Origin: Hydrurus foetidus
Taxonomy: Eukaryota
Assembly (NCBI GenBank): GCA_900617105.1
Contig: UYFQ01000289.1
Location: 1-54,111 of the forward strand
Reading direction: 5' to 3'
DNA: 54,111 bases
Part shown: positions 1-47,670 of the stretch, in pieces
Layout: each line of letters opens with the position of its first letter
How positions within the stretch are numbered: the stretch's first letter is position 1
Made by a program: the position numbers and the translations under genes
Notes under the pieces: generated by a model
What the model saw: the letters and a program-made list of their open reading frames with translations, nothing else
Databases searched by the model: none
Told to the model about the DNA's origin: nothing

Positions 1-3000
1 TCGCCACCATTCATGCTCAAGACTATTGTCATCGATCAAATGAATGATACTACACTGCTCTCAGTGTCTCAAGCGTGTGCAAAGGGATTTGTGGGCATCT
101 TCACCTCTAAGGACTGCAAGTTCTTCAATGCGATAGATGTCATCCCACACCTTCAGACAATTTCAAAGACAGCTCACCTAGTTATGAGTGGCAAGGTAGA
201 GGAAGGCCTCTACTTGCTGGACTCCAACTGAGTGCAACCGGCTCAACTCTTGGTCACGAGTGTAAAGGAGCTTTCGATTTATGACCACGTGCATCGCGTA
301 CTAGGACACCCTGGCGAAGAGGGTATGGCCTGGCACCGACAGCACACCATTGGAGCACACTACTCCAACTTGGATGCATCTACACCAAGACCAATATGCG
401 CAGCATGCGTACAGGGCACGATGCGACAGACCTCTACGGACCATCTTCGTATACACCGTTTGCCATCTCCTTGCTACGGCAGTCAATTCTCACTTGACGC
501 GTATACACATACACACCGGTCACAGGCCGGTTATAAGTACTGCGATATCATCACGGACTTATCTACAAGACGAAGTTATCCATGCTTCACGAAAGACCGG
601 GGAGCTGCAGAACTTGTCAAAAGCTTCTCCACCCTCTTCCAATCACATCCTGAGTGGAAGCCCTCGCTTCCAGGCGTAGACCGATTCATCAGAGCCGATG
701 CAGAGAAATCTTATCGGTCAGCTGAATTCCTTCAATGCCTTCACAACTTCGGATATCGACTTGAGCCAACACCACCTCGCGACAAACATGCAAATGGAAT
801 CGCAGAACGTGCAGTAGGCGTCTTATCGATGAAGTGCAACATCACCATGCAACCTTTAGGGATGTCAGTACCACAGAAGTTTTGGGATCTTGCCTTTGAG
901 TATACATGCATCACCCATGCATTCAATTACCATTCAGCAATCAAGACATCACCGTATCATCTCATCACTGGAAAGCATGTAATCCTCAAGAACCTCAAGG
1001 CCTTTTGGAGCTTATGTTGGGTTCACATCGCGCTTGAAGATAGGAAAGGAAAAATCGGTTTTCCTCGTGCATACAAAGCCAGATTCGTTGGTTACGATTT
1101 ATCGAGAACGCTCGAGCCTTGTTTTAAGGTCATCGAAATACTACCAACCGGAATCTTCGGCAAAATTAGGACAAGTAAGGACGTCATTTTCGACAAAGAC
1201 AATAATTATAATTACACGGACGAGTACCCATCCGATCTTGACTTTTCTAATTTACACCAGAATATCAATAACGATATCTCTGCAGTCCTACCAGCTAACA
1301 AGGTAGTTGAAAAAGATTCTGAACAACAACTAGCAACTCCAGCTATTCCAATACACCCTGTACCTGTAATACCTTGCACTATTCAGAATCGAACCCCTGA
1401 AAATCCTATTCCAGCGAAAATACATCCAAATGTGATTAACAATAACAAAATTGTTAATAAATCTGGATCGACTAATATCAAATCAACAAAACAGAATATA
1501 CCGTTTGATCCAACACCAATTAGAGATACAAATAACAAATCCGACATCGATGATAATGACATTGGTATTAATACACCGATTCAAAACATTGAAAATGACG
1601 ATGCTGTCTACTGGTACTCTACTCATGTTAGAAATCACGAACATTTTCTCTCATTGATTGAAGCAAGTCATCACGAAAAACTCTTCATCAATTTCGATCA
1701 ACTCAATGTGCCAAAATCATTCTGGAAAGCTATGGCTATACCTGAATGGAAAAACGCAATAGATACTGAATTAAAGAAATTCGAGAAGAACTCATGTTTA
1801 CATGTAGTACCATACATTGACCAACACCTGGTACCAATGATGTGGCTTTTTAGTATAAAAACCGACGGTACGAAAAAGGCCCGTTTAGTGGGACGGGGAG
1901 ATATGATGATACCACTCGTGGACTTCGACCCCGACGCCGTATACTGCGGAAATGTATCATCGTGTTCCATCAAGATGGCACTAAGCATTGCAGCAGCATA
2001 TGGACTAGTAATGAAAGGAGGTGACCTCATTGGTGCTTACCTCATTACAAGAGCAAATGTTAACTTCCCGGTGCACATAAAGACACCGCAGGGATACACT
2101 TGCCCACCCGGTTTCTGCTTTCAGGCTGTCGGCAATCTTTATGGATTCCCACCTGCAGGGCAAAACTTTTCCATAGAGTTCGATATTTGTATCTTCGAGT
2201 GTGGTTACAAGAACACACCCTGGGACCTCAAGTTCTTCTTTAAATGGACCACAGATGGTAGACCCATGCTTATCATCGCTCACAGTGATGACTTCAGATG
2301 GTTTGGTCCTTCGGACAAACTTGATGAATGGGATCTGATCATCGCCACCTTCAATGCACACAAGTATGAAGTCACTGATGCAACTGACAAGGAGTTCGTT
2401 GGTATTCGTATTCAGCGTGATGAAGATGGCACATATTATATGGATCAACATCGCATGATTGATTCAATAATAAAAGAGGCTAATATATCTGGTGCGAAGG
2501 ACATGCACTTACCATACCCGACTGGGGACCAAGAACCTGCATTGTCAAAACTAGACAACGCTTCTACCCCTGAGGAACGTATGCAGTGTATGAAATACCC
2601 GTACAGGAGGGTCGTGGGTCAACTAATGTACGGTATGGTACATACCATGGTCGGCATTCTGTATGCACTCAATGTACTATCCCGCTATGGTAACAACCCA
2701 GGTCCCAGACATATTAAATTCCTCAAACACTTACTGCAGTACTGCAAGTACGCACGAAGTGATCGACTAGTGTTCCATGGACACGATGGACCCAGAGACA
2801 TCGAGACTATGACAACGCTACTTCAACTCCGGTTTCAATGCGATGCAGATTTGGGTGGTAATCCCGACAATAGCCACTCCCAGACTGCATACCTTGGATA
2901 CCTCGGCCGTAACCTTATCTGCTGGTGTTCCACCGACCAAGGCAGCATATCAACATCAACGGCAGAGTCGGAAATCAAGGCTGTCAACCACACACTCAAA

Positions 3001-3306
3001 GCAGAGGTCATAGCCAACAGAGGCATCCTAAACATGATGGGATGGGTCCAAGGTCCAACCTCTATTGAAGAAGACAACCAAGCCTGTATATACCATTCTA
3101 AGGCAGCACACATGACACGCAACCTAAGGCACCTCGACCTCACCGAAAACTGGGTCAAAGAGAAGGTTGCTGATGGTACTTGCGTAGTTGTTAAAGTTAA
3201 ATCGTGCGATAATAATTCAGATATTGGTACAAAAAGAGTTTCTCTACCAATATTTAATAAACTTCTAAATCAAATTATAGATCAGTCTCAGAGACGAAAT
3301 CTTTAA
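1..3306 (+). CDS. pol: Copia Pol polyprotein (protease C-terminus, GAG-pre-integrase HHCC, integrase, RT, RNase H); one in-frame TGA at 229-231
   Basis: LLSVSQ..GLYLL; HRVLGH..CAAC; integrase D-D-E (SLDAY, RADAE, NGIAER); RT KARLVGRG, LYG, HSDD; RNase H CDADLG, STAESE, EEDNQA, NNSDIGTK. ORFs 13..231 and 232..3306 share a frame. Confidence 0.92.
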
Positions 3307-3430
3307 ATAGCACTATATTAATTATGTTTTAATATTGTATTTGTCTTGATCACACATATACTATGTTAATTCTAATATTATAAAGGTAGCTCATAAGTAA
3401 ACATGCATTATTTTACACTACATCTTCACT

Positions 3431-3438
3431 ACGGGGAG
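3431..3438 (+). promoter_or_regulatory. Polypurine tract of Copia element; 3' LTR begins TG at 3439
   Basis: ACGGGGAG|TGTCAGACC about 125 nt after pol stop. Confidence 0.7.
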
Positions 3439-3506
3439 TGTCAGACCACTTGATTCTATCAAGATATGTCTGTAGTAATATAGTTGCAAATATAGTTTCA
3501 AATATA

Positions 3507-4015
3507 TACATGTACGTTATGCGACACGTACGTACGTAAGTACACATGCAGATATGATAACATGCACACGTACACACGTACTTACACATGTTAGTGCATA
3601 CTCATTTATGCATACGTACACACATGTACTTACACATGTACGTACATAGTCAATATGTACGTACGTACGTACGCATGCACGTAGCATAGCGTACACCTGT
3701 ATGGTCACGCACACACGTACATACGTACGTGCACATGTTAGTACAAATTATTATATGCATATGTACACACACGTACTTACACATGTATGTACACATATAA
3801 TACGTACGTATGTACGGCCGCCAATAGCGTAGTACATAGATGTATAGGCGTACATACGTAAGTACCACTGTACTTACGCATGTACGTTCTTATACATACA
3901 CATGCATACGTACTCCTATAATATCGCCATATAGCAGTTAGTACTCACGCATGTACGTTCGTATACATATACACGCATACGTACCCCTGTACTATCGCCA
4001 TGTATCAGTTAGTAC
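3507..4015. repeat. Low-complexity alternating purine-pyrimidine satellite (TACG/TACA/CATG units) ending in two ~71-bp tandem copies (3871-3941, 3942-4015)
   Basis: Directly visible repeats. Confidence 0.85.
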
Positions 4016-4266: not shown

Positions 4267-7200
4267 TCACTGAATTGAGACAGTAGCCTGCAGCTGCTTC
4301 TCCACCTTCGCTGCGAACGCTAGAAGGTGACATCTTGTATTTAGTCTTACAAATTGTTTTTCTATTGGTTGAATATCATTACTTTCATTAATTTCATTTG
4401 ATACGTTCATATTGTCATCATCTTCAGATTCATTTAACTTTAATCTTTTTGAATCATGTTCTTTTACTAAACTTTCAAATGTATTTTTATATCTAATTTG
4501 TCTTTCTTCCAAGTTTTCATTTGCATTATCATCATCATCATCACTAATATCTTTTTCAAATTCTGTTATTGCATCTTTATATACTACATGTTCTTCACCT
4601 TCATTTATATTACTATCTATTTCTGGTTCTGGTTCAGGTTGATTTACATCATAACCTTTTAAGTTTCTGTATTTTCCAAGCTTATCATAATCTACAATTC
4701 TTACACCTCCAACATACTCAATGTACTTCGGTGTTTCAATATTAAATGGAGGTGATTTGATAGATTCCATTGATATTGGACTATCAGGAATATCAACTTT
4801 ATCATATGACATATCACTTGATTCATTATCACTTTCACTTTGATCTGATGTATGTACATACATTGGAGACAATTCTTCAGTTGTTCGTGTGACTACATCG
4901 ACATCAAAAATCGGTGATTGAGCTCTGTCATATAAGACTGTTATCATCGGTTTCTTGACCAAGTCTTTTGATGATTGAAGTGAGTGTATAATCCATCTAA
5001 TTCATTCGTTATTTTTGATGACAATGTTCTTTTTACCAAGTCATTTATTGGTCTTACTAGTCTTGCTATTACTAGGAAGGCATCTCTAATTCCAAACATA
5101 ACAAATGATGGATCATTTTCCTTTAATATATCCATTTGTAATGTTTTTCTTAATAGGTCTTCTTTATCTAGCGTTGATTTCTCATGGTAGTACCCAACAT
5201 GTTGTCCAGCAAATGCGACAAAGTCGAATATGATTGCGTGCAAAACAGTATCAATGAATAATGTATTATTAATTACTTCATTGAATTGTGTGTATTGATC
5301 AAGACGTTTAATTACTTCGGCATATTCACTAACACAAGTCATTTGAGACCAATAGTGTCCTGGTCTCGTTGAGGGAATATATTTTTCCGTCACCCCGTCA
5401 ATACAGTATGGATTGAATTTCATAAAGTGTTGAGGTCCGGCCTTTTCATCAGCAGGAGGGAGAACTATACATGCTTGTAAGAGTGTAGCTCCTATCTGAT
5501 ACATCAGGTGCATCCATTTAACTGTCGGAGTGCGTATATCCTTTCTACGTGTAGTAGATGGATTTTTATGCCACCCAAAGAGATCAGTGTACTGATTTGC
5601 TCTTTCTTGATTGTCCTTTATTGTTCTTTTGTTTTTGAATAAAAAGATATAAGGAACTATTGTTGTTGCAGGATCATTTCTATTATATTCCATTACATAT
5701 AAATGAAATAAATAGTATTGTTCGGCTAATAGTATTGCGGCATTGATTGCCCTTTGGGGAATAGAGCATGCAGAATAATCATTTTGTACATTCTGGAGTA
5801 GAGCTCTTTGATGACTTTTCATTTCATTTTGATTCATTTTTCCATTGTAAATTTTATTCTTATATTCTTGATTTTGCCTATCATTTTTTATTATTCTCTG
5901 ATCATTTGGTGTTATTCGCACTCGCATTAAGGTATTGTGTTTTTCTTCATTTGACTGATAAGGTGGTGCAGAAGGGTTACCCCAACTTGAGAATGCACGC
6001 ACCTGATGTTCAGTTTCAGTATCTTGAGATCTCATCCAATTTAATCTTTTAATTTGCGCTTTCGAATATCCACCCCGTACATTCGGATCACCAACCTTTG
6101 GTCCTACTGAGTCAATTTGTGCTTGACTTAAATCAAATTGTACTGACTTTTTATAAGGAATTGTATTTGATTGGGGTTGTTGGATTTTATTTTCATTGTC
6201 TGGATTCATTTCATGCTTGTATTTGCATGTTGGTCTATTACAAGTTCCTTTTTGAAATCCAAAACAATAACCACCATTCTTAACCGGTCTTTTGCTTTCC
6301 CCAATATTGTCAGGTAAAGATCTAGCATCTTGAATTTTATTCTTGTTATTAATATCATAATTATAAGCTGGATTATATTGTGTTTGTTTTCCCGGATTTT
6401 GCGGCGGATTTGACAAAGATTGATATTGATTTAATTTCGCTTGAGACTGATTTTGAATTGTATTTTGATACAGAGAATATTCAGAGCTACTTGATGTTTC
6501 AGGAAAAGATGTTACACTCGCCATGCGAATGACCGCTGTTTCAGGCGGCATTGCATCTGCGACTCTCAACATAATTCCCATCGACTCATTATAACTTGTG
6601 TTATTCACGACACAAGCAGCAAATGATGAAGCGATCTTAGGTCTTGGGTCAGCATCTAACCGATCTGATACCCAAGCCATTTTCTCGACGTCAGTCATCA
6701 TTCTACTCTGTGCGTGTTCTAGATTAGAGAATAATTGTTCCCATTTAGAGTATTCTAATCTAAAATGAACACTTGGATTTATTTGGTACGTGTCCAACGC
6801 TTTTCTTGCGAATTTCACGTCCTGTTGCTTTTGACCGAAGATGTAGCTGATCATTTCTCGATAAGATGCAATTCCGTTTCGTAACTTTTGATGTATTATA
6901 GATATATTATGATGCAAAGTTTTTGAAAACATAATGTAAACTAGAGAAAATAGTCTATCATTATCATGAATATAGTGGAATGCATCATCTTCTTCGAGAA
7001 CTACTCTTTCGATAATTGGCTCCGATGATAGTGAGTCAATTGATGTCTCATCTTCATATTCAACTCTAGGAACTAATATAATTTTTCTAACTGAGAACCC
7101 ATGAATATTTTCGTCTGTCATTATCGGCTCGGTCCTATGACCTTCAATGAGGGTAAGTAACCCCGTTGTTGATAATACCGAATGTATCATACGCAGACGG

Positions 7201-7907
7201 TGAAATTTGTCTGGCGTATTTATGTCTATGATATATTTCGATATTTCTGATATTAGCACCGTTGAATTTCGTTGGTAATGTATTCGTTTGACCATCTTTT
7301 CACATGGTTTCTTCTTCGAATATTTATTTGTTTGTTCATCGTCACTACTGCTGCTATCCTTATCCCAAAATTCTGACTGCTTCGGCGTTGATCCGATTTT
7401 GGTATTGTTGTTCTTATTCGAGTCCTTTCGATCCTTCATTGTCGTTATTGAGGAATCGCTCGAAAAAATTTTGCGAGGGTTTCCCCCGTAATTCAATCTA
7501 CTAGAAATTTTGCTACTACTAACGGACGATTCATTATCGGACGGCATAGGACTAGATGGACTTGACGGACGGAGGTTTATAAGAATCGCTCTAGTCTCAG
7601 TGTTCCTAGACGAGGGTTGATCGCCTAACGGCAGATCCACCCTTGGCGCGATGTCGATTAACCCTAACGGGTTATCTATAATCGGGCGCTCATCTCTTAA
7701 CAACTGGATTTGGGCGATTCTTCTATCTAAAGCTGCCCGGAATTGAGGGCTTTCCTCATCGATTACAACACCGATGGGAGGCTCCTCAATTCCTAATGCA
7801 GGAGTCAGAGGGAGAGTAGGTATTAGTTGTTCAATAGTGGGCGGCGGTGGCTCCTCATCATCTTCTGATGTAAATGGCCCCGGGCCTTTCTTTCCTTTCG
7901 CCATCAA
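4267..7907 (-). CDS. Copia-type Gag-like protein with CCCH zinc finger and long unknown/acidic C-terminal extension (ORFs 4944..7907 and 4267..4962 probably one frameshifted ORF)
   Basis: LSTTGLLTLIEG..P and helical segment resembling Copia Gag; C-x7-C-x4-C-x3-H finger (CFGFQKGTCNRPTCKYKH); no protease DSG/DTG, RT or integrase follows; the two ORFs overlap by 19 nt. Confidence 0.6.
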
Positions 7908-8500
7908 AAACTTGGGCGGAGGCTCTTTGAATCTATCTTTGAAGTCTTTAAGTCTTCAATCGCTACCATGTGAGTTGCCATGGGATGGCACGAGGTCGGG
8001 AGGACATATTGCAAATGGCCAAACGAAGGTTGAGAGGTTTGGTTAGTAAATTCTTTTTTAGGAATTAGAAACTGGCACGGAGGCCACAAAGCATAAAATC
8101 ATTTCTACCTGTTGCACATCATTTCTACCTGCCGCACAATAATAAGATCTCAATCGTCATGCGCATGCAATTTGACTGGCTCTCGTAGATTTGCATCTAC
8201 GTTGTTGTATAGGCGAGATAGTAGCTACTCAACTGTAAATATGACGTTTGTACTAAAAGCTAGACTTTTGGTACCAAGTACCGGATAAACACTATACAGC
8301 TGTGGTTATTATGGTGTAACAATGGCAATATACGTGATACGAATTGGCATTGAGGAAGCGACTTGGTGCACATTGCACACCAATAACAATCTACAAAATG
8401 TGTTTACTTATGATATCCTATCATGCTAATTGTTGATTATACAAATGGTAATATACAGCTATAACTAGCACTTATCGCTGTTATATACCGACACAGATAT

Positions 8501-8800
8501 TACTTTTCAGTTTTCAGTTTTCAGTTTTCAGTTTTACTTTTACTTTTACTTTTACTTTTACTTTTACTTTTACTTTTACTTTTACTTTTACTTTTACTTT
8601 TACTTTTACTTTTACTTTTACTTTTACTTTTACTTTTACTTTTACTTTTACTTTTACTTTTACTTTTACTTTTACTTTTACTTTTACTTTTACTTTTACT
8701 TTTACTTTTACTTTTTGCCTTTTACTTTTACTTTTACTTTTACTTTTACTTTTACTTTTACTTCTTACTTCTTACTTTTTACTTCTTACTTTTTACTTTG
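8501..8800. repeat. Hexanucleotide microsatellite (TTTCAG)n then (TTTTAC)n
   Basis: Directly visible, roughly 45-50 units. Confidence 0.97.
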
Positions 8801-9576
8801 TACTTCCTACTTATTACTTATTACTTTTCATTTTTCATTTTCACTTCTGTGGGGAATTTTAGTCTAAAACCCCCCATTTTTCTATCTAGAATCCCAGGAT
8901 CCAAGGTCCCCCCCCTAAAAAATGGGAGGTTTCCGCGTAAAATTCCCTCAAAAAGTTACATCTGCGTGGGGGTGCGTACAAATTTCATAAAGCTGGGGGT
9001 GCGTGCTCCAGATTAAAAGTCAAAGCAAAAATGCGTATTATACAATATACAATATACTGCCCTGCTCATACCCCCATAAGTTACCGAACCAAACACAAAT
9101 TATCAGCAAGCTTTTCACGACAAAAACCACATAATTGCGTTAAAAATTAGATCGCATCAGATTGAAACTATCTCGTTGAAGTATCACTTTGAGGTGATAC
9201 GTAGCTTATTACATCATTATCTTGTACAGTTTCCATAATCTTCAACAATTCCTACGGTCCATAAATTGCAAAAATATGTAGAATCAACCAGTTGGCTTGA
9301 GAGATATCAACACCTTCAGCAGAAAACAAGTCCTTGACTATATGAGTGGGACATTCGTCAATTCAACTAGCTCAAGCTTTTTGCTATTTCCATTTTTCGA
9401 TTCTGCTATTGTTTTGCGAATCACTATTGCTTTAAGGTAATTCAGAGAATAGAAATATCTTTGCAGCATAGCGAAGATCGCAACGAAGCAACTCCCCACA
9501 TGACCGACGTAAGTATGGTAGGTGGAGAATATTCCGCACCGTCGTAGCTGCATCATGCGAATGTATCTGGCGATGG

Positions 9577-9785
9577 TGTAGTCCGGATAGGAAGTAGGTC
9601 GATGGAAGGAAGGTGTTAGTTAGTTACAAGGCTATGAGCTAGAAGCTAGGATAAACTTCCACGAGTAGGCTAGAGCTAGCTAGCAGCTGCGCTAGAGATG
9701 TATGTGTACAGTAGGCGGTAGGATCGGATGGATCGGGACAAGGTCCGGTACGGCCCGTAGGCCCGGTATAGCCGGTCCGACCACA
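9577..9785 (-). repeat. 3' LTR of G1 (209 bp)
   Basis: Direct repeat of 16134-16340 with 5 differences; preceded on minus strand by purine-rich GAAAAAAAGATAAGTGGGGGTGA. Confidence 0.97.
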
Positions 9786-10133
9786 TCACCCCCACTTATC
9801 TTTTTTTCTGAAGAAAATGAACCTATGACGCGACCACCACGTTTTGTACAAAAATCTAATAAGGCTAAAACTAACTAAAGGAATAATAAAGAAAAAAGAT
9901 TACAAATATGTAAATCTAATAATACATTGAAATGTATAAAAATAAAAATCTATACAAATAGACTTGGTGGTGGGTCGGTCGAGGCGATAAGGTGGGTGCC
10001 TAGTACCATGTACTTGCGCACGAGACCTCGATACGTAATTATGTCAGATTTTTACTGACTAAAACCATAAAAACCTCATAGAGGGAAAAATTAGGAAAAA
10101 TCTTCAAAAGATAATACGTTCGAGATCAGCAAC

Positions 10134-13100
10134 TTAGGCTGATGTCTCAATGTTTCTGGGAATGAAATGTTTCATTTTGTTATCCCGTAAATAATCATGG
10201 AGTGCTTCACAGAGCCGTAGTGATTTCCACGGCTCCCATGTATTATGAGAGTCATCGTAGTTGAGCCATTTAACATGGAACGACATTGTAGTCGGTTTCT
10301 TGGTGTCACCAGCGTGACCCAGAACTTTCTCAACCACGAACTCCATGTAATCGCGACGAGCAGTGTCAGCAGGTATATCTACCTCTGGGTCATAATTGAA
10401 TATTTTCAAATTTTTGACGTGAACACTTCGTGTCTTGTGGTTTACAAGATTAGCGAGAACGTACTCGGACCCCTTAAAGGAGACAATACAGTAAGGGCCA
10501 TGCCACTTAGTATGTAATCGAGTTGGAGGTCGATCAGTGTATCGGCATAAGACATATGACCCCACGGGGAACACAGTCGCTGATTCAGCTGACGCGGCGT
10601 TTTTAGCATCCGCTTTTAACAAAGTTTGAACCGCAGTTTCAAGTACTTTGTCTTGTACACTTATCAAATCTGATATGTACGTTGATCTTGAATGTGTTCC
10701 AACACTTAAGTGTGGAGTGAGAATACCACGATTCAAATCAAGTTTGTTCCCGAACAATAAATGAGCGGGGCAGACACCTGTGCGTCTATTAACTGAACTG
10801 TTAATGATACGTTGCACGAATGGGATTGACTTAGCATATCCCTCAAGGGTTTGTTTATCAAAAACTAAACCTCTTAAGTGTCTATTCACCTCTTTGTTGA
10901 CTCTTTCAACAATTGCATTCTCTTGTTTCGAGTAAGCAAGGGTGAGATTATGTGGTGTTCCACAAAGATCTAAGAATTCTTTGATCAATTCATTTGCGAA
11001 ATGTGATCCTCGATCAGATCTAATCATATTTGGTGATCCAAATCGACCAAAATGCGCAAGCAAACAGTCAGCTGCTGATTTAGCATCTGCGTCTGCACAC
11101 CAGAACAATTCTGTCCATCGTGTGAATGTATCGATGATGACTAGGATATAACCTTTGTCAGGAAATGGACCAATATAGTCAACATTTAGCGTATCGAAGA
11201 TAGCATAATTTGAAGTTGCAAAATGAGACGCATTGATCTTAGGATCTTTTGCACTCAACTTTTGACAACACGGACAGTTCTGTATGAACGTACGTACATG
11301 TTGTTTCATGTGTTTCCATACTTGTTGTAAACTAAACAACCGAGTAAGGGTACGGTCTACGCCGTTGTGACCGACAATTGCATTGTGGCACATTTGAATG
11401 TATTCTAACTGATCGTCTGAAGCTGGTTCTATGACCGTCAGAGCTGATACAGTGAAAGAAGATGATGAAGTAGGAAGTAATTCCAATTCTTCTGTTCGTA
11501 ATGGCAGAGCAATTTCTGTCAGATTAGGACAAAGCCTTGACAGTGCGTCTGCCAAAACATTCGAAGTACCGGGTACGAATACCACGGTAAAATCTAGTTC
11601 TTGCATAGCAATGAACCATCTCGCCACCATTGAGGTAGGATTTTGTTTCATATATGTTATGTTCAAATGATCCGTATGGATAGTGAACGTACGATCTCTG
11701 ATTAGATAATCGAGTTGTGTACAACAAAAGAAGATGGCATAAGCCTCTTTTTGTATCGTAGACCACCTTATTTGTGTGGGTGTCAACGATTTGCTAATGA
11801 AAGCAATTGGTTGCCAAATGGCACCAACAACTTGGAATAAGACTCCACCGATACCAAAGTCGGATGCGTCTGTATACAAGCGGATGTCTAACTTATTGTC
11901 ATCAATGAAGTACATTAATGGACAACGAGATATAGCAATCTTTGTGTCAACAAATGAGTTGGTGCTCTTTTGAGTCCAAACTACAGCAGAACGTCTCGGA
12001 GCAGAGTGATCAATCATATCCTGCATTGGCTTAACCAAAGTGGAATGCATTGGTACAAACTGTCGAAAATAGTTCGCTAAACCCAAAAATGACCTGAGTA
12101 AGGTTAAATTTTTAGGTATAGAAAAGTTTAAAACTGTTTCTATCTTCTCTTTTGACATGGATAAACCATCTTTGTCAACGACTCTGCCAACGTATTCAAT
12201 ACGTGGAAGGCCGAAACGGCATTTTTAGCTTTGAGTCTTAGACCCTTAAGTCTAAATCTTGCAAAAACTTTTTTCAAGTTAGTAAGAAACTCTGCTTCAC
12301 CCTTGCCATATACTATACAATCGTCGAGATACATCTCGCAACAATGATAGATAAGGCCATAGAGGACCGCCGTTACCATCTGCTCTTGAAAGTAAGAGGG
12401 GGCTCGACACGGACCAAAGGGCAGTCTCGTAAACTGAAATACCCCCGCAAAGCATATGAATGCCGTAAAAATGCGGTGTGCGGGGTGTAACGGTGCTTGA
12501 TGGTAACCAGCGGTTAAATCCATCACACCAAAAATATCCGGTTTTTTATTACCGATCCTCTCAAAGAGGTGTTTGATATTTGGTAACGGGAATGAGGCCG
12601 GCTTAAGACACCTATTAAGTGGCCGGTAATCGATGCAGGTTCGAAATTTACCGGGTGACTTAGTTACTATTACAGGATGACTGTAATAAGCGGCATCTGA
12701 TCGCTCTATAACCCCTGATGCAAGCATCTCGTCAAGGTTTTCTTTGAGAGCAACCTCTTTTGTTGATGACTGGGGACGTACCGGCGTACGGTTTTCGTCT
12801 TTTTCCCACAACTCAAGTGGGATGTTAATCTCAAAGGGTTTAAGTGACGCTGGTTTCTCAGCTAATTGATCACTGAAGATGTCTGAATATTCAGAACAGA
12901 GCTCTCGGAGCTTCCTTTGAAAGCTTTCATCTCCTTCAAAGGTAATCTCTTTGAGGAAATCCTCTGGCCCTTTGGGCAAGTCATCTTGACTAGGTTTCTC
13001 CGCCAAGAAGGGGCAAACGTATCTATCTTGCCATCGTCAATCTCGTCAACTGAGAGTGCGACACCACTGGGCCATAAAGGCTCAGTGACATAGTCTAAGG

Positions 13101-13920
13101 TATCAGAGTCCTCAGAAGTGTTTGTAGGGGTGGGAATCTGGTCGCCACCTAGGTGCGGTGTATCACCCGTACGTTTTGCGAGAATAGTAGTGACACTATT
13201 CAGTCGCTCACAACCTACAACACCACAGGGATCTTGGGTAGCTACTCCCTCGATCTCCATCTGAGTATCGTTACATGTCGACATTGTATGGACACAAGAG
13301 ACGTTGCTCTTCGAAGAAGATTGACCATGCAATATGCTCTTCTTGTTTGGATACTCGGAAGATCCGTGTGTTTCTCTCTTTTTAGAGGGTGGTTTACCGC
13401 CTGGATATTTCAGCTTGTCGTAGTGAGGTGTTAAAGACTCGACTACGGCTGTATCAGGTTCGGTACCCAACGCTATCATACGACGCGTATATTTGTGTTG
13501 AAACAACGGATCGAGTTTATCCAAAGCTTCTTTTCTTTCGAATTCGCGTCTGCGAGCATCGCTCTTTCTCTTATTCTCAGCACTTAGCTCAGGAGAAATG
13601 CCGAATGCAAACGGAGTTAACGTCCAAAAATCATACTTATTTACCGTTTCACGGCTAAATAAAATGTCGATGTCGGTTTTCCGATTGACCCTCATGGGTA
13701 GGCTGATGCTATGGCATTCACCATCGTAAGAATGAAAAAGGATTTTTAAATCGCAAATTTCGTTATTTAGATAGCATTGGCCATCGAGACCGCTGCAAAC
13801 AGTTATGGCTTTAAGAGCAGGATAACATAAGTGAGTAGCATTTAATTTTTCAATCATGTCATATGAAATAAAATTGTCCGAATAATTGGCCGTATCCATT
13901 ACGGCCTTCCCGCGGCGCGC
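10134..13920 (-). CDS. pol: G1 Pol: aspartic protease, RT, RNase H, integrase, chromodomain (split over ORFs by 1-nt frameshifts)
   Basis: KAVMDTAN; RLPFG..YLDD; LYTDASDFGIG; H-H-C-C zinc finger; D-D-E (NVDYIGP, RSDRG, AIVER); chromodomain FHVKWLNYDDSHNTWEP. Confidence 0.95.
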
Positions 13921-13947
13921 AGCTCGCTAGCTGGGCCTGTCCTGTCC

Positions 13948-15571
13948 TTATCCTGCACAATAACCGTAACGTTAAGGTGGTGAGAAGCGAGGATGGAAGG
14001 GGTATGTAAAAATTCTTCACGAATAGGTACAAGTGGCTGCACTTCGAGATGATCATCAGTCAGATTAAAGACATCATCATCGAATGTGGCAGCCACACAG
14101 TCATGGGCAAGGTTCTTACCCTGGTGTTGTCCCGGCTGAGTGTTGGGAGGAGGGTTGTGTCCCTGCGGGGGGTTGTATTTACCCTTACCGCCGGACCCAC
14201 GGCCCTGGTATTGGTTCGCATTGGGGTTTTGATGGCCCCTTTGCTTACCTCTACCACCCCCTGGTTACCCTGGTTACCATAACCAGATTGGTTCTGGGAG
14301 TTTCCTCCTTGACCCTGGTTGGAACGATCTGAACCATCCGAGGTGTTGGATTGGTTCCCAGAACCATGGCTGTTCTTGGCGCGCTTGTTGTCGTTACACA
14401 TCAAGTAAGGTTTAGAACCTCTGGGGTAGAACTGAACTCGTTCCTCGTATCCAGGAAGGACGAGGTTGAGTTGCCATTCAGAGTACCCCACCGCGGCCCA
14501 AGCCATCCCCACTGTAGAACTCTCCCACTCAACTTGGTGATTCGTGTTGGAGTCGGAGTAATACAGGATGGGGCAGTCTGCCAAATTGTGCGACGTAGCT
14601 CCGCACGACCGGCACGGACGAAACATCGGTACGAGCGGTACTTCCGTGGAAGCACGGACAGAGAGTCCGTGCTGCGTCGGAACGTACGAGCTAGGAGTAC
14701 GCACAGTAGCAGTGACTGATCTCGACGAAGCGGAGGGTGTAGGTGAGGGTGCTTTAGCACTCGCTCTACTCGTCTCCTTCTTACCAACGTCTGGTGGAAC
14801 TGCTGATGCAGGAAACGAGTACACCGTGTCCGGGTTGCCATAGCTTTTGATGAGGTTCATCATTGCCCTAGCCTCGGCAAGAACCTGACCAATGCGTAGC
14901 ATAGTCGAATACCACGTATGAGGTGGGGTATTGTCAGCAGCTTTCGCTTTCAGGTAATCCTGTTGGATTTGACTACCCTTGGCTAGGCGCTTCTCCAATA
15001 TCAATATGAGCTCAGCATGCTGAGTCTCTGATAATGGTCCCTTAGACCTCTCATAAGTGCTCACAAGTTCGTTGTAACGTACGAATGTGGCATTCTCATG
15101 ATCGTGGTTAGCGATCTGATAATGGAAGGGAACTTGGCTAAAGCTCTCTGCCAGAGTACATTCTCCCAAACCATTTGGAGAGAAGTACTTTATTATCAGT
15201 TTGGCTACCTGAAGTACCGACAATTTAGTCTGCCAATCATGGCGTTGTCGTCTATCGATGATGTTAAATTCAGGATCGATCATGATCCTGAAATTAAGTA
15301 ACTCGATTGCCTGCTTCTGCATGCAATCGGTTAGCTTCATCAACGGGTACCTCTGAGCCTGTTCGTAGAACTCAGTCGCATCAGCTTCATCAATGAAGTT
15401 ATGCCTGAGGACGAACACCTCACCCTGGAGTTGCATCGTCGAGGGGAAAGCTGGGAACAGCGAGTTCGACATTGAGATAGTCGACTCGTTGAGCGCGGCT
15501 AAAGCTGCCAGACGTGCAATCTCCTCTTCGTCCGGATTCGGATCAGGGTTTGGGTTAGGTGGTGATGACAT
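13948..15571 (-). CDS. gag: G1 Gag with CCHC zinc knuckle
   Basis: ORF 14060..15571, CRSCGATSHNLADC, G/N/Q-rich tail; 3' end depends on a G-run frameshift near 14258 and a predicted intron 13953-14119. Confidence 0.85.
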
Positions 15572-16133
15572 GTCTAATCACTTATCGATGTAAATCTCAC
15601 TGAAAGTCAATGGAGATCGATAACCCCTGCTCAGAAAAATTTTTCAAGAGCTTCGCCTCGTTCACAAACGGGTACTGTAACGTCAGTAACAACGAATGAA
15701 GCAATTCTACCCAACTCTTGAACTGAAAAGTTCTATGGCGTGAAAGCCAAATTTAGAGTGGTAGAAAATCTGGGTGCCTGTTAAGGTCAAAGACGTTGCT
15801 CAACGTCGACAAAAAGAAGTCTATAGACTAATCTTATGTCTCTGGTGATGAATCTGTGATTCGATCGACCAGCGGAGCAAGTCTAAAATGACTTTTGGGA
15901 AGGATAAATCAACTTCGACCAAAATGTCAAGTTTGGAAGAGCCCAATGCACGGGGATTCCAAGAAAGCAGTTAATCTGACTTTCTCTAACTTAGACTAGG
16001 TCTTCTGAGCCAATGGCTGCAGAAGAAAACGGCTCGAAAGTCGTTGAGCAGACGCTCAGAAGTCTTATCTACAGGTTGGGACGAGTAGACGGAATGAGAG
16101 GTAGCAGAGAAAAGAGTGGACTAATAGCGCTAT

Positions 16134-16340
16134 TGTAGTCCGGATAGGAAGTAGGTCGATGGAAGGAAGGTGTTAGTTAGTTACAGGCTCTAAGCTAGAA
16201 GCTAGGATAACTTCTACGAGTAGGCTAGAGCTAGCTAGCAGCTGCGCTAGAGATGTATGTGTACAGTAGGCGGTAGGATCGGATGGATCGGGACAAGGTC
16301 CGGTACGGCCCGTAGGCCCGGTATAGCCGGTCCGACCACA
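16134..16340 (-). repeat. 5' LTR of G1 (207 bp)
   Basis: Direct repeat of 9577-9785, TG..CA ends. Confidence 0.97.
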
Positions 16341-16573
16341 ATGGTTCAGAACTGTATTTTTGACATCTCTTCCGTACTTACGCTGCCTGTCACTGAACGT
16401 GCAGTACTGATACCCGCTCACAGTCGCCGATTTTTGGGGAAACAATTCGCGAATTGCGAGAAAGATAGAGAGAGATATTAAAAAAATTAAAAAAATCTCA
16501 ACTCTCAACTCGCAACCCCAACCGTAGCCTTCTTTGCCACCCCAATATTAGAAATCGACACAATGAAAAGCAG

Positions 16574-19500
16574 ATGACAATGCTTTCGTCGGAGGATGGT
16601 TGCTACCAACCTGATGATGCCAATAGTCCACCTGTCTCTCGGCTTGGTCTTCGAATTCTACGATCTGAGTTAGAAAATGCCAGTTCGAATGTGGTTGAAC
16701 TAACTCTTCAGTATCGTGATCTATCCCACATCGTATCTGAGTCGCAACATGAAATAAATCAGCTGAATGGAGGAAAACAATTATCTCGTGCTGAAGTTGT
16801 CAGTCTTAGCAGGACGCGCGCTTCCGCGTCAAGAACTAATGCTCCTATTTACAGAGAACTTCACGATAGCGCATCGTCAATTGTTACGGAATTACTTCGA
16901 ATGCCACGACTCTTAATTGATGCTATAGCATTTTCATCGAGCTTATCTAGGGTGGGCTTCATCGCTCTTAACAGGCTACTTCACCCTTACTTCTGTGATA
17001 GTTCAGCAACGACAGCATTACTCCTAGATGCTATAGTGTACCAATCTGAGAGGTTCCGACTGAGAAATGGTAGATCATCCGATCCAAAGGGACCGAAGTT
17101 GATATCTCTTTCCCTTTTCATCGACAGCGTAAATTCCGCAAGGGCTTGGAATCCTTTAATGCAGCCTCTTCCTGTGAGTCCTAATGTACAGAACGAAAGT
17201 TTATTGACTACTCTTCTAAAACTTTACGCTATCAGAGTGGATGCGACTTCATTCTTTAGAAAGTTATGGTCGCCAGTATTTCCCTCCATTGTTTCTTTGA
17301 TAAGTGGACCAGGCCATCGGGAGCCGACAAAGTTCAATAGTTTCGTCAAAGTAGCGTTGAGATTACTGACTCACACTTTCAGTGAAAAATCTGTCATTGC
17401 GTTTCCGGCCACTGTAGCAGCTGTCAGTAGAGCTATATATGCACTAAGTGGCACCGAGGGATTATGCGTGTATCTATTCGATCTCTTGGTATTACCGAAC
17501 GTGATCAAAATATTATCTCTCTCTGACTACGATATTGCTGGGGGCGATGTGATGAATCGGTTTCTGGCATGTTTCTCGCAATCAAAGTGGTGGCCAGAGA
17601 GCTCAGAATTCAATCATCTTCCGATGAACACTTTTATATGGATGGTATGGAGGTTGTTCACAGGTTCTATCGGAATAACTGGACTCGCCCTCTCGACACT
17701 GTCATCGAAGATCTTCTTTAGCGGTGCACCTCATCTGGATAGCTCAAGCATGCCTGACCAGCGACTGCAGACCATCCTGTCCGCACTGTGTCGCTCTATC
17801 AAGAAGTCCTGTCGGTTGATAGTGCATTTGTCCTTAGATGCGAGTGGGTGCGAGTACTTCTCATCCGATGCGTTGGTTGTCACAGCAGAGCTGAAGACAG
17901 CCCTGCCAGACCTATCCAAGTATATAGAGAGGAGACTCCATGCACTTCTTCCAAAACCTAGAGAAATGCTGTGTGCCTTGGTGATGTCTCGCTACGAGGT
18001 GGCGACTCTGTTCGATGCTGTGTCCTACGTGATAAACAATGACAATGAAGGGGACGGGGCAGAAGACAAGATTTACGCCGTAGGACTCTTAAAAGAAGAA
18101 ATTGAAAGCTACCGCTTGATAGAGAAAGCGATTCAAAAGAATATTCCTCAAGCATCTCAGCCTGCGTCAGAGCAGATGATGTTGCAGCTGCCGTACGGAC
18201 CAGTGCCTCTCGAGGCGTCCGAGAAGGACATCCGGATATCGCACCACCAGCTGTCGAGGGGTCTGCTAGAAGCCTCCTGCTGCGAAGGCGCTGCCAGACT
18301 AGCTCTCACCAGACTGCAGCAGGGAGTCAGCAGCAGTTTGTCAGATCTCACCGAGGGTTGTGACCCCTCTGAGACCCTCTCATTAGAGACCTTAAATGAC
18401 AGTGGAACGGAGAAATTTACGACTCTAAAGTCCCCGGGTCCTCCCGAAGAAAGGCCCGTTGGGGTGAGATTAATCGGAGTCTTTGACGCCCCTACTGAGT
18501 CTTCATCGATGAAGTCAAATGCGCCCCACAGAGGTGTCGGGCCTGTGGTGAAGGGAATGGACAAAGCAGAGCAGATGCAAGCAGAAGGTGCGGTGGATTG
18601 AATGTCGCGTAACATGACTGCCCTCCTCCTCATTTTCGAAAAAAATCATTCGCACGCCACGTTACGACACTATACATGGAGTATAGAATCTGACTGCGGC
18701 TATTGCTAAAGTTTTTTCACCTCAACTCAACTTACCTCACCTAATATCTTGCAGACGATGAAGTAGCTGCCAAGAGGGCTGGGCGGCTTCAAGAATATCT
18801 GAGAGAATCCCAGGCAACTAGTGCATTCACCGGCACTCGATACACCCTGGTAACACACACCGTATGGTGCAGTGTATCCCATTCCTCTATCTGTGCTGCG
18901 CTGATTTTATGTAGTTTGAGATGACACTATCAGTGATACTGATACTCCTCCCCCACAACCCATGTGTGCTGTCACATAGGTGGATAGCGACCTAGAGGGT
19001 AGCCACCTCCTGCGGGAAACAGAGTCTTCATCACAGCGCGGACTCCCTGACACTCGCCCCAAGACATCCAACACTCGTGATCAGGAGGTACTCTTCAAGT
19101 CTTCATTGTGGAACGGTTCAGAGCGGTCGGGCCATGTTACCCCTCCCCACAGAGTCAGCGGCACTGGTTATGATCTCACAGGGAACGGAAAGGCAGAGAG
19201 AAGAGGAAGCAGCACGACCCCCACCCGATCCTCTCAAGAGCGCACCAGTAGTCGCTTGTCCAACAAGTCTCTCAAGTCATCCCCTGATGGAAGACCAACC
19301 GGGAATGCTACCTCCAGTGTTAGATTGTACCCGAAGAGGCCGAGTCGCACCGGTAGTTCCTCCAAACCGTTCCCGGAACACCTTAGGAACAGCATCAGGC
19401 AAGACGACTGGGCAGATGACGATGAGGGGGAATCGAATTGGGAGTACAGCAACCCTTTCCGCTATAACGCCAGAGGTGAACCTGAAGGGCGGAGCGGGAA

Positions 19501-22500
19501 GGGGTATGATGATTCAGCGAGCAGACCAGCGAGCGGAGGTGCAGGATCAACCAGTTCTAAAGGGCACAGAAAGATTCTCCGTCCCGCACCCCAAGAGGAT
19601 CACAGTGACAAGTTCGCCTACTTCAACCACTACCAGGAACACAACATCAAACCGGAGACTAATCCGCTCTACCAACGGAACAGGCTTCAAGCAGTCAGCA
19701 GTCACGAGAAGGCTTCCGAGGGTAGGGATCAGAGCGACAGACACGATGCATGGGAAAGGGAATATGGCGGGAATCAAGAGCGAGAACGAGAACAGCACAG
19801 AATTCAAGAGATGGAACAAAGCATCGACCAGGAAAGAGAGGCATTCAAGGATCTGGACACTGACTGGTACGGAGATATAGATGTGGTTCGAGAGAAGGAA
19901 GGCCGCAGGAGTGGAGACAGGAATCGATACGGAGATACTGAGCGCCCATGGAGTGGTGGCAGTCGGGAGTGGGATGGAAGGAGGGACAGCGAGAAAGCTG
20001 CTTACGCCATGACAAGAAAACATCTAAAACAAAGAAATGATCACGGCAGAGGAGCAGAGGGTAGATACCGATCTCACCACGAAGAACAATTCCAAAGCGA
20101 TGAAGAAGCACCGGTAGTCCGATCTCGCAGAGATAGTCCCGCTCCGAGCAAGAGTAAGAGTAATCGGAAGAATCGATACGGCTCCTCTGACTCTCAGACT
20201 GGGAGGAGCCGGTCCACCTCCTTGAAAGATGGGTCTGTGCGGTCAAACGCCAATAGCCCTAGTCGGACCCCTCCGAGATCGAGAGCGCATTCGGGTCCCA
20301 GGGTAGAGAAACCCAGACGAGTCAGGAGCGCGACTACTCGCGCGGACCGCGCCAAGTCTCCGGGTAAGAGAAGGGGCAGGTCTCTGCAGTCCAGTCCCGA
20401 GAGGTACAGGGCTCCTCAACCTGTAGAGGCCCCAGGGTGGCGGGCCTCCTCCCCCTCAATGACGCAGCCTCCTTTCAAGCCCTCAGGATGGGGTCGGGGA
20501 CACGACCACCCCATCGTCCCTCTAGAGCCCTCCAGGGCAACCACTCCCCCTAACTACTCCTTCGCGTCCAGGGAACTCTCTGCAGGGGCGGAAGGTGTGC
20601 CATTCCTGAAGGTAGTGTTGAGGAAGAGTAGCGAAGAGGAAGCCCTGTCACAGCGCAGCGAGTCCAGGGACCGACTGCTGCAGCCATCTAGACCTATGGG
20701 TCTACGTCAGTCTTCCTCTCGTCCTTTACCGGGGAGTCAATCCTCTTCGTCCTCGATCAGTGACATCTCTAGCAAGCACCAGCGAGAGGTATTCGAGGGT
20801 ATCACACCTGGCCTGAGGGAGTACGAGGAGGTACCGGGAGTCCGACCCGTGTTCCGGCCACCAGGCAGCACACACGGGGTACCCATCCCCATGCAAGAAT
20901 ACGATCTGAAGATAGCAGACAGCTTGAGTCGCAGTGTGTCAGAGTCAGAGACGGAAGCAAGGAAGGGAGTGATGCCGGAACAGCAGCAGCATCAAAAGGT
21001 ACTAACGACCCCTACTCCCTCAGGGGGCGGTCCTAGTCCGGTTGCGCAGATCCTGGACCTGCCCAATGGAATCTTGTCTACTGTAAGCAGCCGTAAGAGC
21101 AGCATAGATGAGGGGTACTGCACTGCGGCAGATTATTCGGATGCCTTCGAGACCACTAGACGCCATGAGACCGTACCGCATAACGTACAGCAGTTCGTAC
21201 CCCATAACGTACAGCAGTTTGTACCCCATAACGTACAGCAGTTCGTACCCCATAACGTACAGCAGTCCGCACCCCATAACGTACAGCAGTTTGTACCCCA
21301 GAACGTACAGCAGTCTGTACCTGAGAACGTACAGCAGTTCGTACCCCAGAACGTACAGCAGTCCGTACCCCATAACGTACATCAGTCCGTACCACAGAAC
21401 GTACAGCAGTCCGTACCACAGAACGTACAGCAGTCCGTACCACAGAACATACAGCAGTCCGTACCACAGAACGTACAGCAGTCCGTACCACAGAACATAC
21501 AGCAGGTCATACAGCATGACATACAGCAGGCCCTACATCGCGCAACGTACCCGGCCACCTTGCTCGCGGACACCGACATGCACTCTCCACATTCGGTAGA
21601 GAGTCTCTCCGCATACGCCTCAGACAGAAGAGCGGAGCACAAGCAAGATCAGGAGCAGGATGCTGACTCTAGTGAGGCTGATGAGGACTTGAAATCGGAT
21701 GAACAGCTAGAGAGCAGCAACAAGATAGAGGACATGACACAAATGACCTCCTACCAGAGAATGCAGCAGTCATTCAAAGAATACAGCTACTCGACTCCTG
21801 CTCCCAAATCAGGGCTGGCTAATGCGTCATCGAGTTTAGAGGTTGGAGAGGAGGGTAGGAGCACGTCTGACCAGCAAGGTGACACCACCAATAGTCAATC
21901 CAGCTCCTCCACTGTCCCTAAAGGGCAAGGGCGTCAGTCGCGTCAGGATCCCCGCATATCCGAGCCCACCTCTACAACATCGCCAGTGAGAAGTAACAAG
22001 CGGTCAGCGTCACCTGCACCGCATGTCTATAAGGAGGATGTGCCGTTCACCTCGAACCCTTCACAAGCACACGCACTTGCGCATGCGCACCGCACACACG
22101 GCACCCCTTCTCGAGTGAGCTGCGAGTCGGACAAAAACATATCCATAACCACAAGTGGAGATTGGGAAGTGATTAATATTAACAAGGCAGTGACGAGGCC
22201 ACTGTCCACCAACTCGTACTCCGAGCGGTCTACCAACACAGCTGACTTCGTCTCCGTCTCCTCAGTGCCGGAGACCAAGGCACAGAGACGATCCAGACAG
22301 CAAACACCTAGTCCCACTGAAGACCCCACTAAGTACATCACACCCAAGAGGAGTCCTCCTCATTCTCGTGTCGACCGCAATGTGCCCTTCACCTACCGCA
22401 CAGAAGACCCCGTAGCCCGATCATCGCAGGATTCATCCCAAGACGACAGACCTATGGGGAGGAGCACCAACACACCCCAGAGAAATAGAGGGTCAGACGA

Positions 22501-23169
22501 AGTGAGGCGCATTGGTAGTACCTCCTGGTCGGTGATGGACATGGAGAACGAGTCAGTGTCGGACACCACTGCTCTGTCAGCAGTGTCAGCCGGACTGGCG
22601 ATGTTGATGGCTGGTATCCCGGTTATGAAGGTAAGAGCAATCCCAACCATCCCTCTGACAATACAGTGTTCCTTCTGCTGTCCCTAACTGTGGATGATGC
22701 ACTGAATACACAGCGCGGTAAGAGGGGCAGACCGAAAAAAAAAATTATCCGGTTTGTTGAGGCGTCTCAAGAGCTACAGTGGACCCCTGCTGAGGCTGAG
22801 GGGAAGGGAGAGGAAGAGCCGAAACAGCGGTTCCGATACAATTGCTTCCCCAAGATAATTTGCAGCAGTGCATACACTCACGGGTCCTCTATCTGCGTTG
22901 ACTCCATCACTGATGTGTACGACAGGGATGACAGGGAGAGTGACGGGGTAGTGGAGGATAGGGTGAAAAACATGCTCAAGAACCTCGGGCCCCATTGCTG
23001 CCTAGTAGTGACCAGAGAGAGGACTCTGGACCTCACATTCCGGAACGCCCAGGAGATGAAGTCGATAACAGCTGCGATAAAGGAGATGCTGAAGGAAACA
23101 TGGCAGATTCGGACAACTTCAGAGGACATTGGCGACTTGCCATACGATGAAACGTTTTCACCCACTTGA
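16574..23169 (+). CDS. Large (~2070 aa) protein: putative divergent RasGAP-like N-terminal domain, long disordered S/R-rich middle, C-terminal PH domain; exons 16574-18587, 18755-18849, 18980-22630, 22714-23169
   Basis: Three GT-AG introns join the ORFs in frame (phases checked); C-terminal LMAGIPVMK-RGKRGRPKKK..LQW..VVTRERTLDL is PLC-type PH-like; GAP assignment by weak resemblance only. Confidence 0.7.
21173..21508 (+). repeat. Coding 24-bp minisatellite, 14 copies, (VP[HQE]N[VI]QQ[FS])n
   Basis: Directly visible in DNA and translation. Confidence 0.95.
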
Positions 23170-29258: not shown

Positions 29259-33735
<4,477 letters not shown>

Positions 33736-37575: not shown

Positions 37576-39510
37576 TTGGAACCTGAAGCTCTTACTCTGC
37601 TACCGGTCAGGCCTCCGCGTCCCAGATCATCGAATAATGTGACTGGTATGGAAGACTATCGTTTCTGTTCCTTTGCTGAAGTTTTGGAGAGGCAAAGGGT
37701 ATGCGATATTCACATACTTGAGGCAACATTTGAGACAGCAGATTCGAAGATACCGCCATCGGCTCGAATTCTAGATAAAGCACGGGCTGTTAAGAAATTC
37801 ACTCGATCGGGCTCCAGTGATTTGCACAAATCATATGAACCTCGAAATCTAACCCAGCTGGTGGCGACAGCGCATTATTTGATCGTAGATGTATGGTGGA
37901 ATCTGGCAAGAAATTCAAATTGCGTTAGGCTTCAACATACTTCATGCAATCGGGGCGGCCACAACTTTGGGTCAGCGTACTCTTTCGTCATGGACCGGCT
38001 ACAGGCAATTCGACAAGATGTTGTCTCGCAGTCCACTTTTGAAAAGAACTCTGTTGCAACTATTGGATTGCTGAAATCGATGGTCCACTTTTATGTTGAA
38101 TCAATGCACTGCATTACGTCGACAGCAAATTTGCACCACGATCAGCAATTTAACACACGGGATGCTCGTCTTCGAACTGGACAGAACGTTTGCGCGACTC
38201 CTCTCATCAGCTCGTGGTTTGACCTCCATTCACACGAGAACGCACTCTCATCGTGCATTACAACAGCTCTCAATTTATGCAGTCAACTTCCCATTGAACT
38301 GCACGCTTCGCATTTAGAAACCTGCGATGAGCTATCAGCTAACTTAATGCTGCTTTCGACAGCATCGCAACTGAGAGACTTGTTCTATGAGATGTACGTT
38401 AATAATGTCGGCTCCTGCGCTGCCAATCAGAAAACAGCCACTGTGGCATCAGCAGTCAAGAGCACCTTGATGCATAAAACAATTTTCGGAGCAAACACAG
38501 TAAATGTTTTTCTCGAACTCCTCAGTCTGAACGCATTATCATCTCATGCAAAGGAGCAAAAAAGTATTGAGGATGAAACAAACCGATCGCAATTACCAGC
38601 ATCAATGGTTGCTCTCAACTGTTTGACTAGCATCCGGCAGGGTAACTCTGCGGGTGCTGTCAGATCTTTTTTCCCTGTAGCAATTTCATGTATTGGAAAG
38701 AGTAGCAGTGGATATGTGAGCAGTCGGAGACGGGACTTGTCTTTGAGCACGAAACTGATGCTAGCTGCTATGCTGCATCACATGCTACCCGAGCTGCGCT
38801 TACTTCGATGTCTACATTGTGATCTATCAGCTCCAAAGAACGACCTTCTTGATATGGTGAGACGTTTAGCAGAGCAGCACTTGCACTGCATCTAGCTCAG
38901 TCTCATGGCGTAGCAATATGTAATACAAAACTGCTCGTGTCTCCTTTTTTATCCCTCTTTTCCGCACTAACATTTACTCTTCACATCTCTTCTTCCACCA
39001 TGCTCATTTTAGAAATCTCTGTCGCGGAAGCTGTGGCTAAGAGAACATTCTTTGTCCCCTGTGGGTGCCAAGAGGCAGGCTGCTGTGACGATTGAGTCTA
39101 CACGGCTGTTGGGAATGCCCCTCACATCCACAGACACTTCACAAGGAGTCCACAACAGCGTGGATACGGATATCAATAGTGGCACTGTCACTCTGAAGGC
39201 TACTCCAGTGTTAAGAGTACTTAGTGATGGCCCTGAAGGTCTTATAAAGCAGCAGAGAGACCTGGACGCCCTCTTTGACTCTAGGAGAATTTTGATGGAC
39301 TGCTATGCGACATACAGTGCAGGCTCCGATGTGAGATGTGAGGAGGACGCACAAGATAGCTGGGATGACAATGACTTAGAGGACAGTGAGGTACTGAGTG
39401 GAGATTTACATGGAACAGATGCGCCTATGAGTGGTGGAGATGTTGTGGGTGCGTTGAATGAGATGCTGCTGATGGCGACATGCGACAATTGGTACCGCCC
39501 AGACACATGA
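37576..39510 (+). CDS. SAC3/GANP/THP3-family protein; intron 38857-39012; start codon uncertain
   Basis: FCSFAEVLERQ..IHILE, AVKKFTRS, YSFVMDRLQAIRQD match the SAC3/GANP pattern; phase-0 GT-AG intron joins the two ORFs. Confidence 0.75.
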
Positions 39511-41526: not shown

Positions 41527-41608
41527 ATCCGGGCACGCAAGTGGTCGGGTAAACAAAATTCAAGCAACAAAACAATTCAATATGATAGGCATGGCTGGCT
41601 ACGGGGTA

Positions 41609-43602: not shown

Positions 43603-43729
43603 CTATATTAGAACAGAGTACAACGGCGACAGACGGAATTAGTTATCGTCTAAGTCACCACAATGTGGTTACAAGGGCTCTGATGCGCCTGCATCGACTT
43701 AAGTGCCTCAGTACCCCTCGCCTCCCTTT

Positions 43730-47664: not shown

Positions 47665-47670
47665 TGCAAT

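Follow-up and report, generated by a model that had tools for sequence, protein, structure and literature searches.

How can an LTR retrotransposon start its minus-strand DNA when a perfect palindrome stands in the place of the tRNA primer-binding site (PBS)? The question is raised by G1, a Ty3/gypsy LTR element with a chromodomain on the minus strand (16340-9577) of the 54,111-nt stretch of DNA analyzed here (the window). The original prediction was that G1 primes independently of tRNA and in a way different from Tf1-type elements, through a fold-back or a duplex of two genomic RNAs that is nicked at a bulge beside the palindrome.

Two gypsy elements with a palindrome after the LTR

G1 shows the features of a Ty3/gypsy LTR element, i.e.: TG...CA LTRs, a polypurine tract and a target duplication. 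Its 5' LTR (16134-16340, minus strand; 207 nt, TGTGGTC...GACTACA) was delimited by LTR comparison, and both of its ends are confirmed by public contigs whose loose ends fall at 16133/16134 and at 16340. LTR comparison also gave the 3' LTR (9577-9785, minus strand; 209 nt), which departs into the flank exactly after ...GGACTACA. The two copies are separated by 3 substitutions and 2 indels, and outside both lies a 4-bp target duplication, CCAT (9573-9576 and 16341-16344), whereas 93% of plant elements have a 5-bp one (PMC6317226). Between the LTRs, all on the minus strand, we found a gag-like ORF (14060-15577) with a CX2CX4HX4C knuckle and without a Pfam match, a pol region (10134-13926) spread in this copy over three reading frames (protease-like; RT; RNase H-integrase-chromodomain), and, at 9786-9806, the polypurine tract plus the short spacer that separates it from the TG of the 3' LTR. 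Pfam matches for RT, RNase H, integrase and chromodomain come in the order RT-RNase H-integrase, with the chromodomain C-terminal, and the best solved relative is Ty3 Gag-Pol.

The palindrome of G1 (AATAGCGCTATT; 16123-16134, minus strand) spans 12 bp: the last LTR base, a 10-nt self-complementary site in the place of the PBS, and a T. A U5 arm, GGACT (16137-16141, minus strand), is complementary to a leader arm, AGTCC (16118-16122, minus strand), whose first base, 16122, varies within the family according to public runs; 2 nt are left unpaired between the palindrome and the U5 arm, and there is no TGG at the site after the LTR. The 12-mer occurs only once in the window in exact form, and no stretch of the G1 LTR matches the site over more than 6 nt. 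The palindrome, the two arms, the 2 unpaired nt, the lack of TGG and the absence of a further copy of the palindrome from the LTR had been described in the original prediction, and they hold.

A second case, missing from the original prediction, is found in the same window, on the plus strand. The 3' LTR of this element, G2, starts at 53956 and runs off the window, so the right end of its 5' LTR (48494-48755; TGTAGCC...GACCACA) was deduced from the terminal inverted repeat. Its gag-like and pol ORFs (48646-53755) include Pfam matches for RT, RNase H, integrase and chromodomain; identity to G1 is 47% for RT and 50% for RNase H-integrase, and gag is not alignable. The 12-bp palindrome of G2 (AATATCGATATT; 48755-48766) has the same position as in G1 and is one compensated pair apart from it (+4/+7, counting from the first base after the LTR). 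A leader arm, TGGTC (48767-48771), is the complement of GACCA in U5 (48749-48753), with a 1-nt bulge. Since the window has only 29 perfect palindromes of at least 12 bp in its 54,111 nt (approximately 5 × 10−4 per position), their presence at the LTR ends of both of its gypsy elements is far beyond chance.

Public runs provided a view of variation within the G1 family. No variant inside 16123-16134 was present among those listed for eight runs (the top 40 of 79 in four runs, and all of them in the other four), and the bases flanking the palindrome vary. A variant at 16122, which breaks the first pair of the G1 arm, is common in 4/4 runs of one set and unlisted in the four others. RNA-labelled runs span the G1 junction as contigs only, one of which bridges it unchanged; this shows neither transcript ends nor expression.

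The remainder of the window contains a Ty1/copia-type pol ORF (RVT_2; 232-3306) with a purine tract and ACGT-rich repeats (3430-4011) after it; two AT-rich ORFs on the minus strand, of 1003 and 244 aa, without a Pfam match (4267-7955); a long (TTTTAC)n array with variant units (8490-8825); a 1235-aa ORF (18980-22687) with a 24-nt tandem repeat (21100-21579), for which Pfam gave a sub-threshold match only; and two host genes, SMC3 and a SAC3/GANP-family gene (30590-32524, 37576-38895). Among named organisms, the best matches of SMC3 are in stramenopiles, and the host, a probable alga, is therefore likely a stramenopile. Split direct repeats (41099-41479/41997-42376 and 41609-41908/47671-47970) surround minus-strand ORFs with one weak tyrosine-recombinase match and one CCCH finger, and this region (41099-47970) resembles a Ngaro/DIRS-type retroelement. 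To the left of G2, GGCC-rich palindromes (48231-48480), including a perfect one of 18 bp (48231-48248), are possibly the end of another mobile element.

The palindrome at the LTR end is clade-wide

We looked for relatives with an alignment of 26 pol proteins as query. A total of 109 loci were fetched by RT/protein motifs alone: 79 were the best among 413 confirmed metagenome stretches, 29 came from genome bins and 1 was a viral contig. Viral contigs gave no match with a single RT query or with a degenerate RT pattern, and one locus with the alignment query. Testable loci (n=42) were those in which the polypurine tract allowed the LTR start to be placed and at least 300 nt followed. A perfect palindrome of at least 10 bp directly after YA, 120-450 nt in, was present in 33/42 loci, compared to 2.75 expected from dinucleotide shuffles. 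The tally becomes 32/42 after dropping L064, whose match is off the LTR end; alignment to its sibling shows a 3' LTR running into the flank, and we rejected this locus as a junction while keeping it in the RT tree and among the 37 LTRs used below. Six of the nine misses (L010, L011, L036, L040, L042 and L102) read as probable 3' LTRs followed by other DNA, a reading that is least sure for L011 and L042. As for the other three, L046 has an 8-nt palindrome, L070 a 12-nt palindrome just ahead of the scanned range, and L066 a 9-nt site that lacks one central base.

From these data we curated 53 junctions, which fall into 39 families when RTs are grouped at 90% identity; the minimum RT identity is 38% and the median 49%. 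The palindrome is perfect over 10 nt in 49 junctions, over 12 nt in two and over 8 nt in one, and it is imperfect, with one central base missing, in the last. The resulting 52/53 is not an unbiased frequency, given that the junctions were partly located via palindromes and that related loci are not independent. Where the sequence was long enough (38 junctions), a sense ORF of at least 295 aa came next in 36. In L053, the position at which the LTR ends (CC) is ambiguous. The last A of the LTR pairs with a T in 47/52 palindromes; at four loci (L022, L023, L024 and L027) the last LTR base is unpaired, so that what stays constant is the stretch of 10 nt that follows the LTR. These results confirm that the palindrome at the LTR end is real and clade-wide. 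Loss of palindromy in relatives would have spoken against the original prediction; it is not lost, and its pairs covary, as described in the next section.

Some relatives depart from the common form. The LTRs of eight loci end in TA instead of CA and the palindrome is kept (L014:7420-7440, L022:6758-6778 and relatives), and the shorter, TGATCA-centred palindrome at L046:60-69 has a form close to the main sequence of the fungal GalEa elements.

Covariation of the site and the known modes of priming

The curated set contains 20 distinct 10-mers. Among 35 family representatives, the +1/+10 pair is AT in 27, GC in 7 and TA in 1; +2/+9 is TA in 32 and AT in 3; +3/+8 is AT in 31, TA in 3 and GC in 1; +4/+7 is AT in 15, TA in 12, CG in 6 and GC in 2; and the central +5/+6 pair is TA in 17, CG in 8, AT in 7 and GC in 3. 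One step further out, at -2/+12, the bases are complementary in just 9/35 families. Parsimony gave minima of 5, 3, 4, 16 and 18 changes for the five pairs in this order, with at least 16 compensated changes at +4/+7 and at least 18 at +5/+6; these counts come from a quick RT tree with long branches, built without named reference elements, and are approximate. As an example, L002 and L003 share 99% identity over 4.5 kb, yet their central bases are CG and TA, respectively, a change that could be due to CpG deamination on both strands. One-sided TG or CA centres are absent from the curated junctions. When sites were picked by their outer arms alone, i.e. blind to the centre, the 4-nt core was self-complementary in 28/30, and both failures lie away from LTR ends.

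Within a hairpin, adjacent bases cannot pair and loops need at least 3 nt. Because +5 and +6 are adjacent and could not pair within one strand, their covariation implies either that two molecules are involved or that the site is mirrored during copying. From the sequences, the pairing at the palindrome is most likely between two RNA copies, and the free variation of the site argues against a sequence-specific binding protein.

The same observation bears on the possibility that a single RNA folds back into a U5 arm, a bulge, a short stem and a 4-nt loop, is nicked near the bulge and primes itself. The G2 monomer is predicted to fold in this way (-6.3 kcal/mol), and U5-leader pairing is overall better than in swapped controls (mean of -3.8 vs -2.8 ± 0.3 kcal/mol; 0/2000 permutations as low). 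Yet the loop bases of such a structure should be free, and they are self-complementary in 28/30 sites that were picked regardless of them. In addition, a nick after +10 would leave a primer stem of 3 bp. Covariation of the central pair already largely refutes the fold-back, which we consider very unlikely. Of the two structures in the original prediction, the two-RNA duplex was thus favored, with a likely role in dimerization, and the fold-back was not.

Nicking at the 2-nt bulge, another element of that prediction, was not supported. The arm is modest across families, since only 6/35 beat 90% of swapped partners in U5-leader pairing; L067 is without a bulge; and the 16122 variant that breaks the G1 arm is common in all four runs of one set. 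The last two observations also count against the fold-back. We rejected the bulge as a conserved nick signal: the U5 arm is an accessory stabilizer. A nick inside the bulge would, moreover, start DNA within the palindrome and not at the LTR end.

We then have to consider that the palindrome is incidental and that priming relies on a tRNA of the host, whole or half, or, as in Tf1, on the 5' end of the transcript itself. The site begins with ATA, presumably like some known sites. Against this, no TGG was found within +1 to +6 at 54 junctions, and tRNA 3'-end priming fails, as judged from features of the site; the window contains no tRNA gene. The anticodon arm of tRNAs has a purine at position 37 and a U at position 33. 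This tRNA-half register fits 1/35 families at offsets 0 and 1 and none at offsets 2 or 3, and it fits neither G1 nor G2. In none of 37 LTRs did a Tf1-type complement of the site exceed 7 nt or the level seen in shuffles, and counted from +1 it was of 5 nt in G1 and 5 nt in G2; with a PBS complement in 0/37 LTRs, Tf1-type self-priming fails as well. The diversity of the site, with 20 different sequences of which two lie within this window, is a further argument against these primers, and we judge this explanation highly improbable. The independence from tRNA and the difference from Tf1 that had been proposed for G1 are thereby supported across its relatives. The TGG, half-tRNA and LTR-complement scans revealed no alternative primer site at these junctions.

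Proposed partner-RNA priming and comparison with known systems

We propose, with a probability of roughly 60%, that minus-strand DNA is primed by a partner genomic RNA paired at the palindrome. The palindrome at the primer place would pair with the same palindrome of the second genomic RNA in the particle, and this RNA-RNA duplex between two genomes would make the site double as a dimer-initiation signal. The steps after pairing are ones that we infer. A cut on the 3' side of the site would leave one RNA with a new 3'-OH, which would be extended into minus-strand DNA on the U5 of the partner. Particles package an RNA dimer, and the RNase H of Tf1 cuts between bases 11 and 12, freeing the primer (PMC7175516); by analogy, the RNase H of RT would probably cut in or beside the palindrome duplex. 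The cut may fall after +10, giving a blunt U5 end, or after +8, giving a 2-nt overhang for integrase. The latter is suggested by the U3-side spacer before TG, which is AG in 22 cases, AA in 18, AC in 4 and other in 2 (n=46). Positions +1+2 are AT or GT in 49/53 junctions; they and the U3-side spacer resemble the dinucleotide trimmed by integrases.

Plus-strand synthesis would in turn copy the partner's site, so that one mutation would produce mirror mismatches and end as either the old or a compensated palindrome. Such mirror copying would be a route to rapid compensated change, and it would explain the near-absence of one-sided variants.

Three observations support priming by the partner RNA: the palindrome lies at the LTR end, its length is constant (10 nt in most cases, to which the last LTR base adds an A-T pair), and all five pairs covary. 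A point against it is that several of the 10-mers consist of A and U alone, and their self-duplexes are predicted to be weak (-4 to -6 kcal/mol). The predicted dimer of G1 reaches -32.1 kcal/mol, compared to 2 × -6.3 for the monomers. Among predicted dimers, the site is paired between molecules at 48/53 junctions and not at 5/53, a result of little weight since it is expected for any palindrome. The assembled contigs showed no cut site, primer or strong-stop DNA, and neither 2-LTR junctions nor fold-back products were found at the 53 junctions, which also counts against the model.

A further point against the partner-RNA model is that a pure dimerization signal would give identical covariation. 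In this main rival, the palindrome serves only for dimer initiation or packaging, as the retroviral DIS does, and the minus strand is primed by something else. Intermolecular pairing would then account for all the covariation; the predicted fold of the G1 monomer, with the palindrome as a 12-nt loop on a U5-leader stem, is like a kissing loop; and the comparison with DIS has been raised in PMC5445492. A dimer signal gives, however, no reason for a start at +1 with a sharp edge (-2/+12 being complementary in 9/35 families), no alternative primer site was found, and the DIS exists besides a PBS (PMC5445492). We regard this reading as rather unlikely. An explanation with the same pairing requirement and the same covariation as the partner-RNA model is that the primer is not the co-packaged genome but a short element-derived RNA carrying the palindrome, cut from another transcript or made apart from it; its length would be similar to the 11 nt of the Tf1 primer. 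This would need two cuts or a dedicated promoter, for which we have no evidence, and the modest U5-leader extension fits a longer primer that still carries U5. Such a short primer appears distinctly unlikely.

Priming by a partner genome would matter beyond this locus. Such elements, if the model is true, would do without a host primer, and their priming would be tied to the successful packaging of two genomes. Three primer types are described for LTR retrotransposons, i.e.: whole tRNA, half tRNA and self-primer (PMC6317226), and novel priming mechanisms have been proposed for Tcn2-5 (per PMC7175516). We give even odds to a fourth mode, in which two packaged genomes would prime each other, the primer site would be the dimer signal, its symmetry would be self-repairing, and the whole would have originated independently in Gypsy and Copia. 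In searches of open full texts, neither a palindromic primer site in Gypsy elements nor partner-genome priming turned up.

A palindrome at this site has been since 2017 an unexplained oddity of one fungal Copia clade (PMC5445492). In GalEa elements (Ty1/copia), the palindrome CHSeq1 (Conserved Hairpin Site) includes the last A of the LTR and occupies the PBS place, and its mechanism was left open (PMC5445492); it is also cited in PMC6934838. This precedent is absent from the original prediction. The elements described here are like GalEa in the lack of a tRNA PBS, the palindrome with the final A of the 5' LTR, the lack of a Tf1-type complement and a possible bulge at the junction. GalEa are nevertheless fungal Copia elements with 10 bp including the A and two main sequences, whereas here we have Gypsy elements with a chromodomain, usually 12 bp, 20 sequences and every pair covarying; the domain order of G1 and its RVT_1 match are those of gypsy, so it does not belong to the Ty1/copia of the GalEa clade. 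In GalEa, a second copy (CHSeq2) 12-41 nt downstream allows an intramolecular hairpin, whereas for G1 and G2, the two elements in which we looked, no CHSeq2-like copy with up to 2 mismatches lies near the G1 site and none is visible after the G2 site. Priming by a partner RNA is not among the proposals for GalEa in the available part of PMC5445492. A Gypsy clade of at least 39 families, with five pairs covarying including the centre, narrows the options to two-molecule pairing.

Tf1, Tf2, Tj1, sushi and Tcn1 share with these elements the Ty3/gypsy affiliation, tRNA-free priming and a primer site of approximately 11 nt adjoining the LTR end (PMC7175516, PMC4600332, PMC6317226), and Tf1-type elements set the example both for a primer released by RNase H out of duplex RNA and for a U5 stem. 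Their primer is, however, the transcript's own 5' end and their LTR holds a complement of the PBS, which is absent in 37/37 LTRs here; the PBS of Tf1 is also not palindromic (PMC5445492), unlike our sites. Skipper chromoviruses of dictyostelids are, as here, chromodomain gypsy elements of protists with no TGG, no LTR complement and an unexplained mode of priming, yet their site is a degenerate polypyrimidine stretch and not a palindrome (PMC5006619). Finally, in the retroviral DIS (PMC5445492) and in the dimerization of Ty3 through tRNA 5' palindromes (PMC5371799) a short palindrome pairs two RNAs, as we propose here; in those systems it lies apart from the tRNA-bound PBS or within the tRNA, whereas in these elements it occupies the PBS itself.
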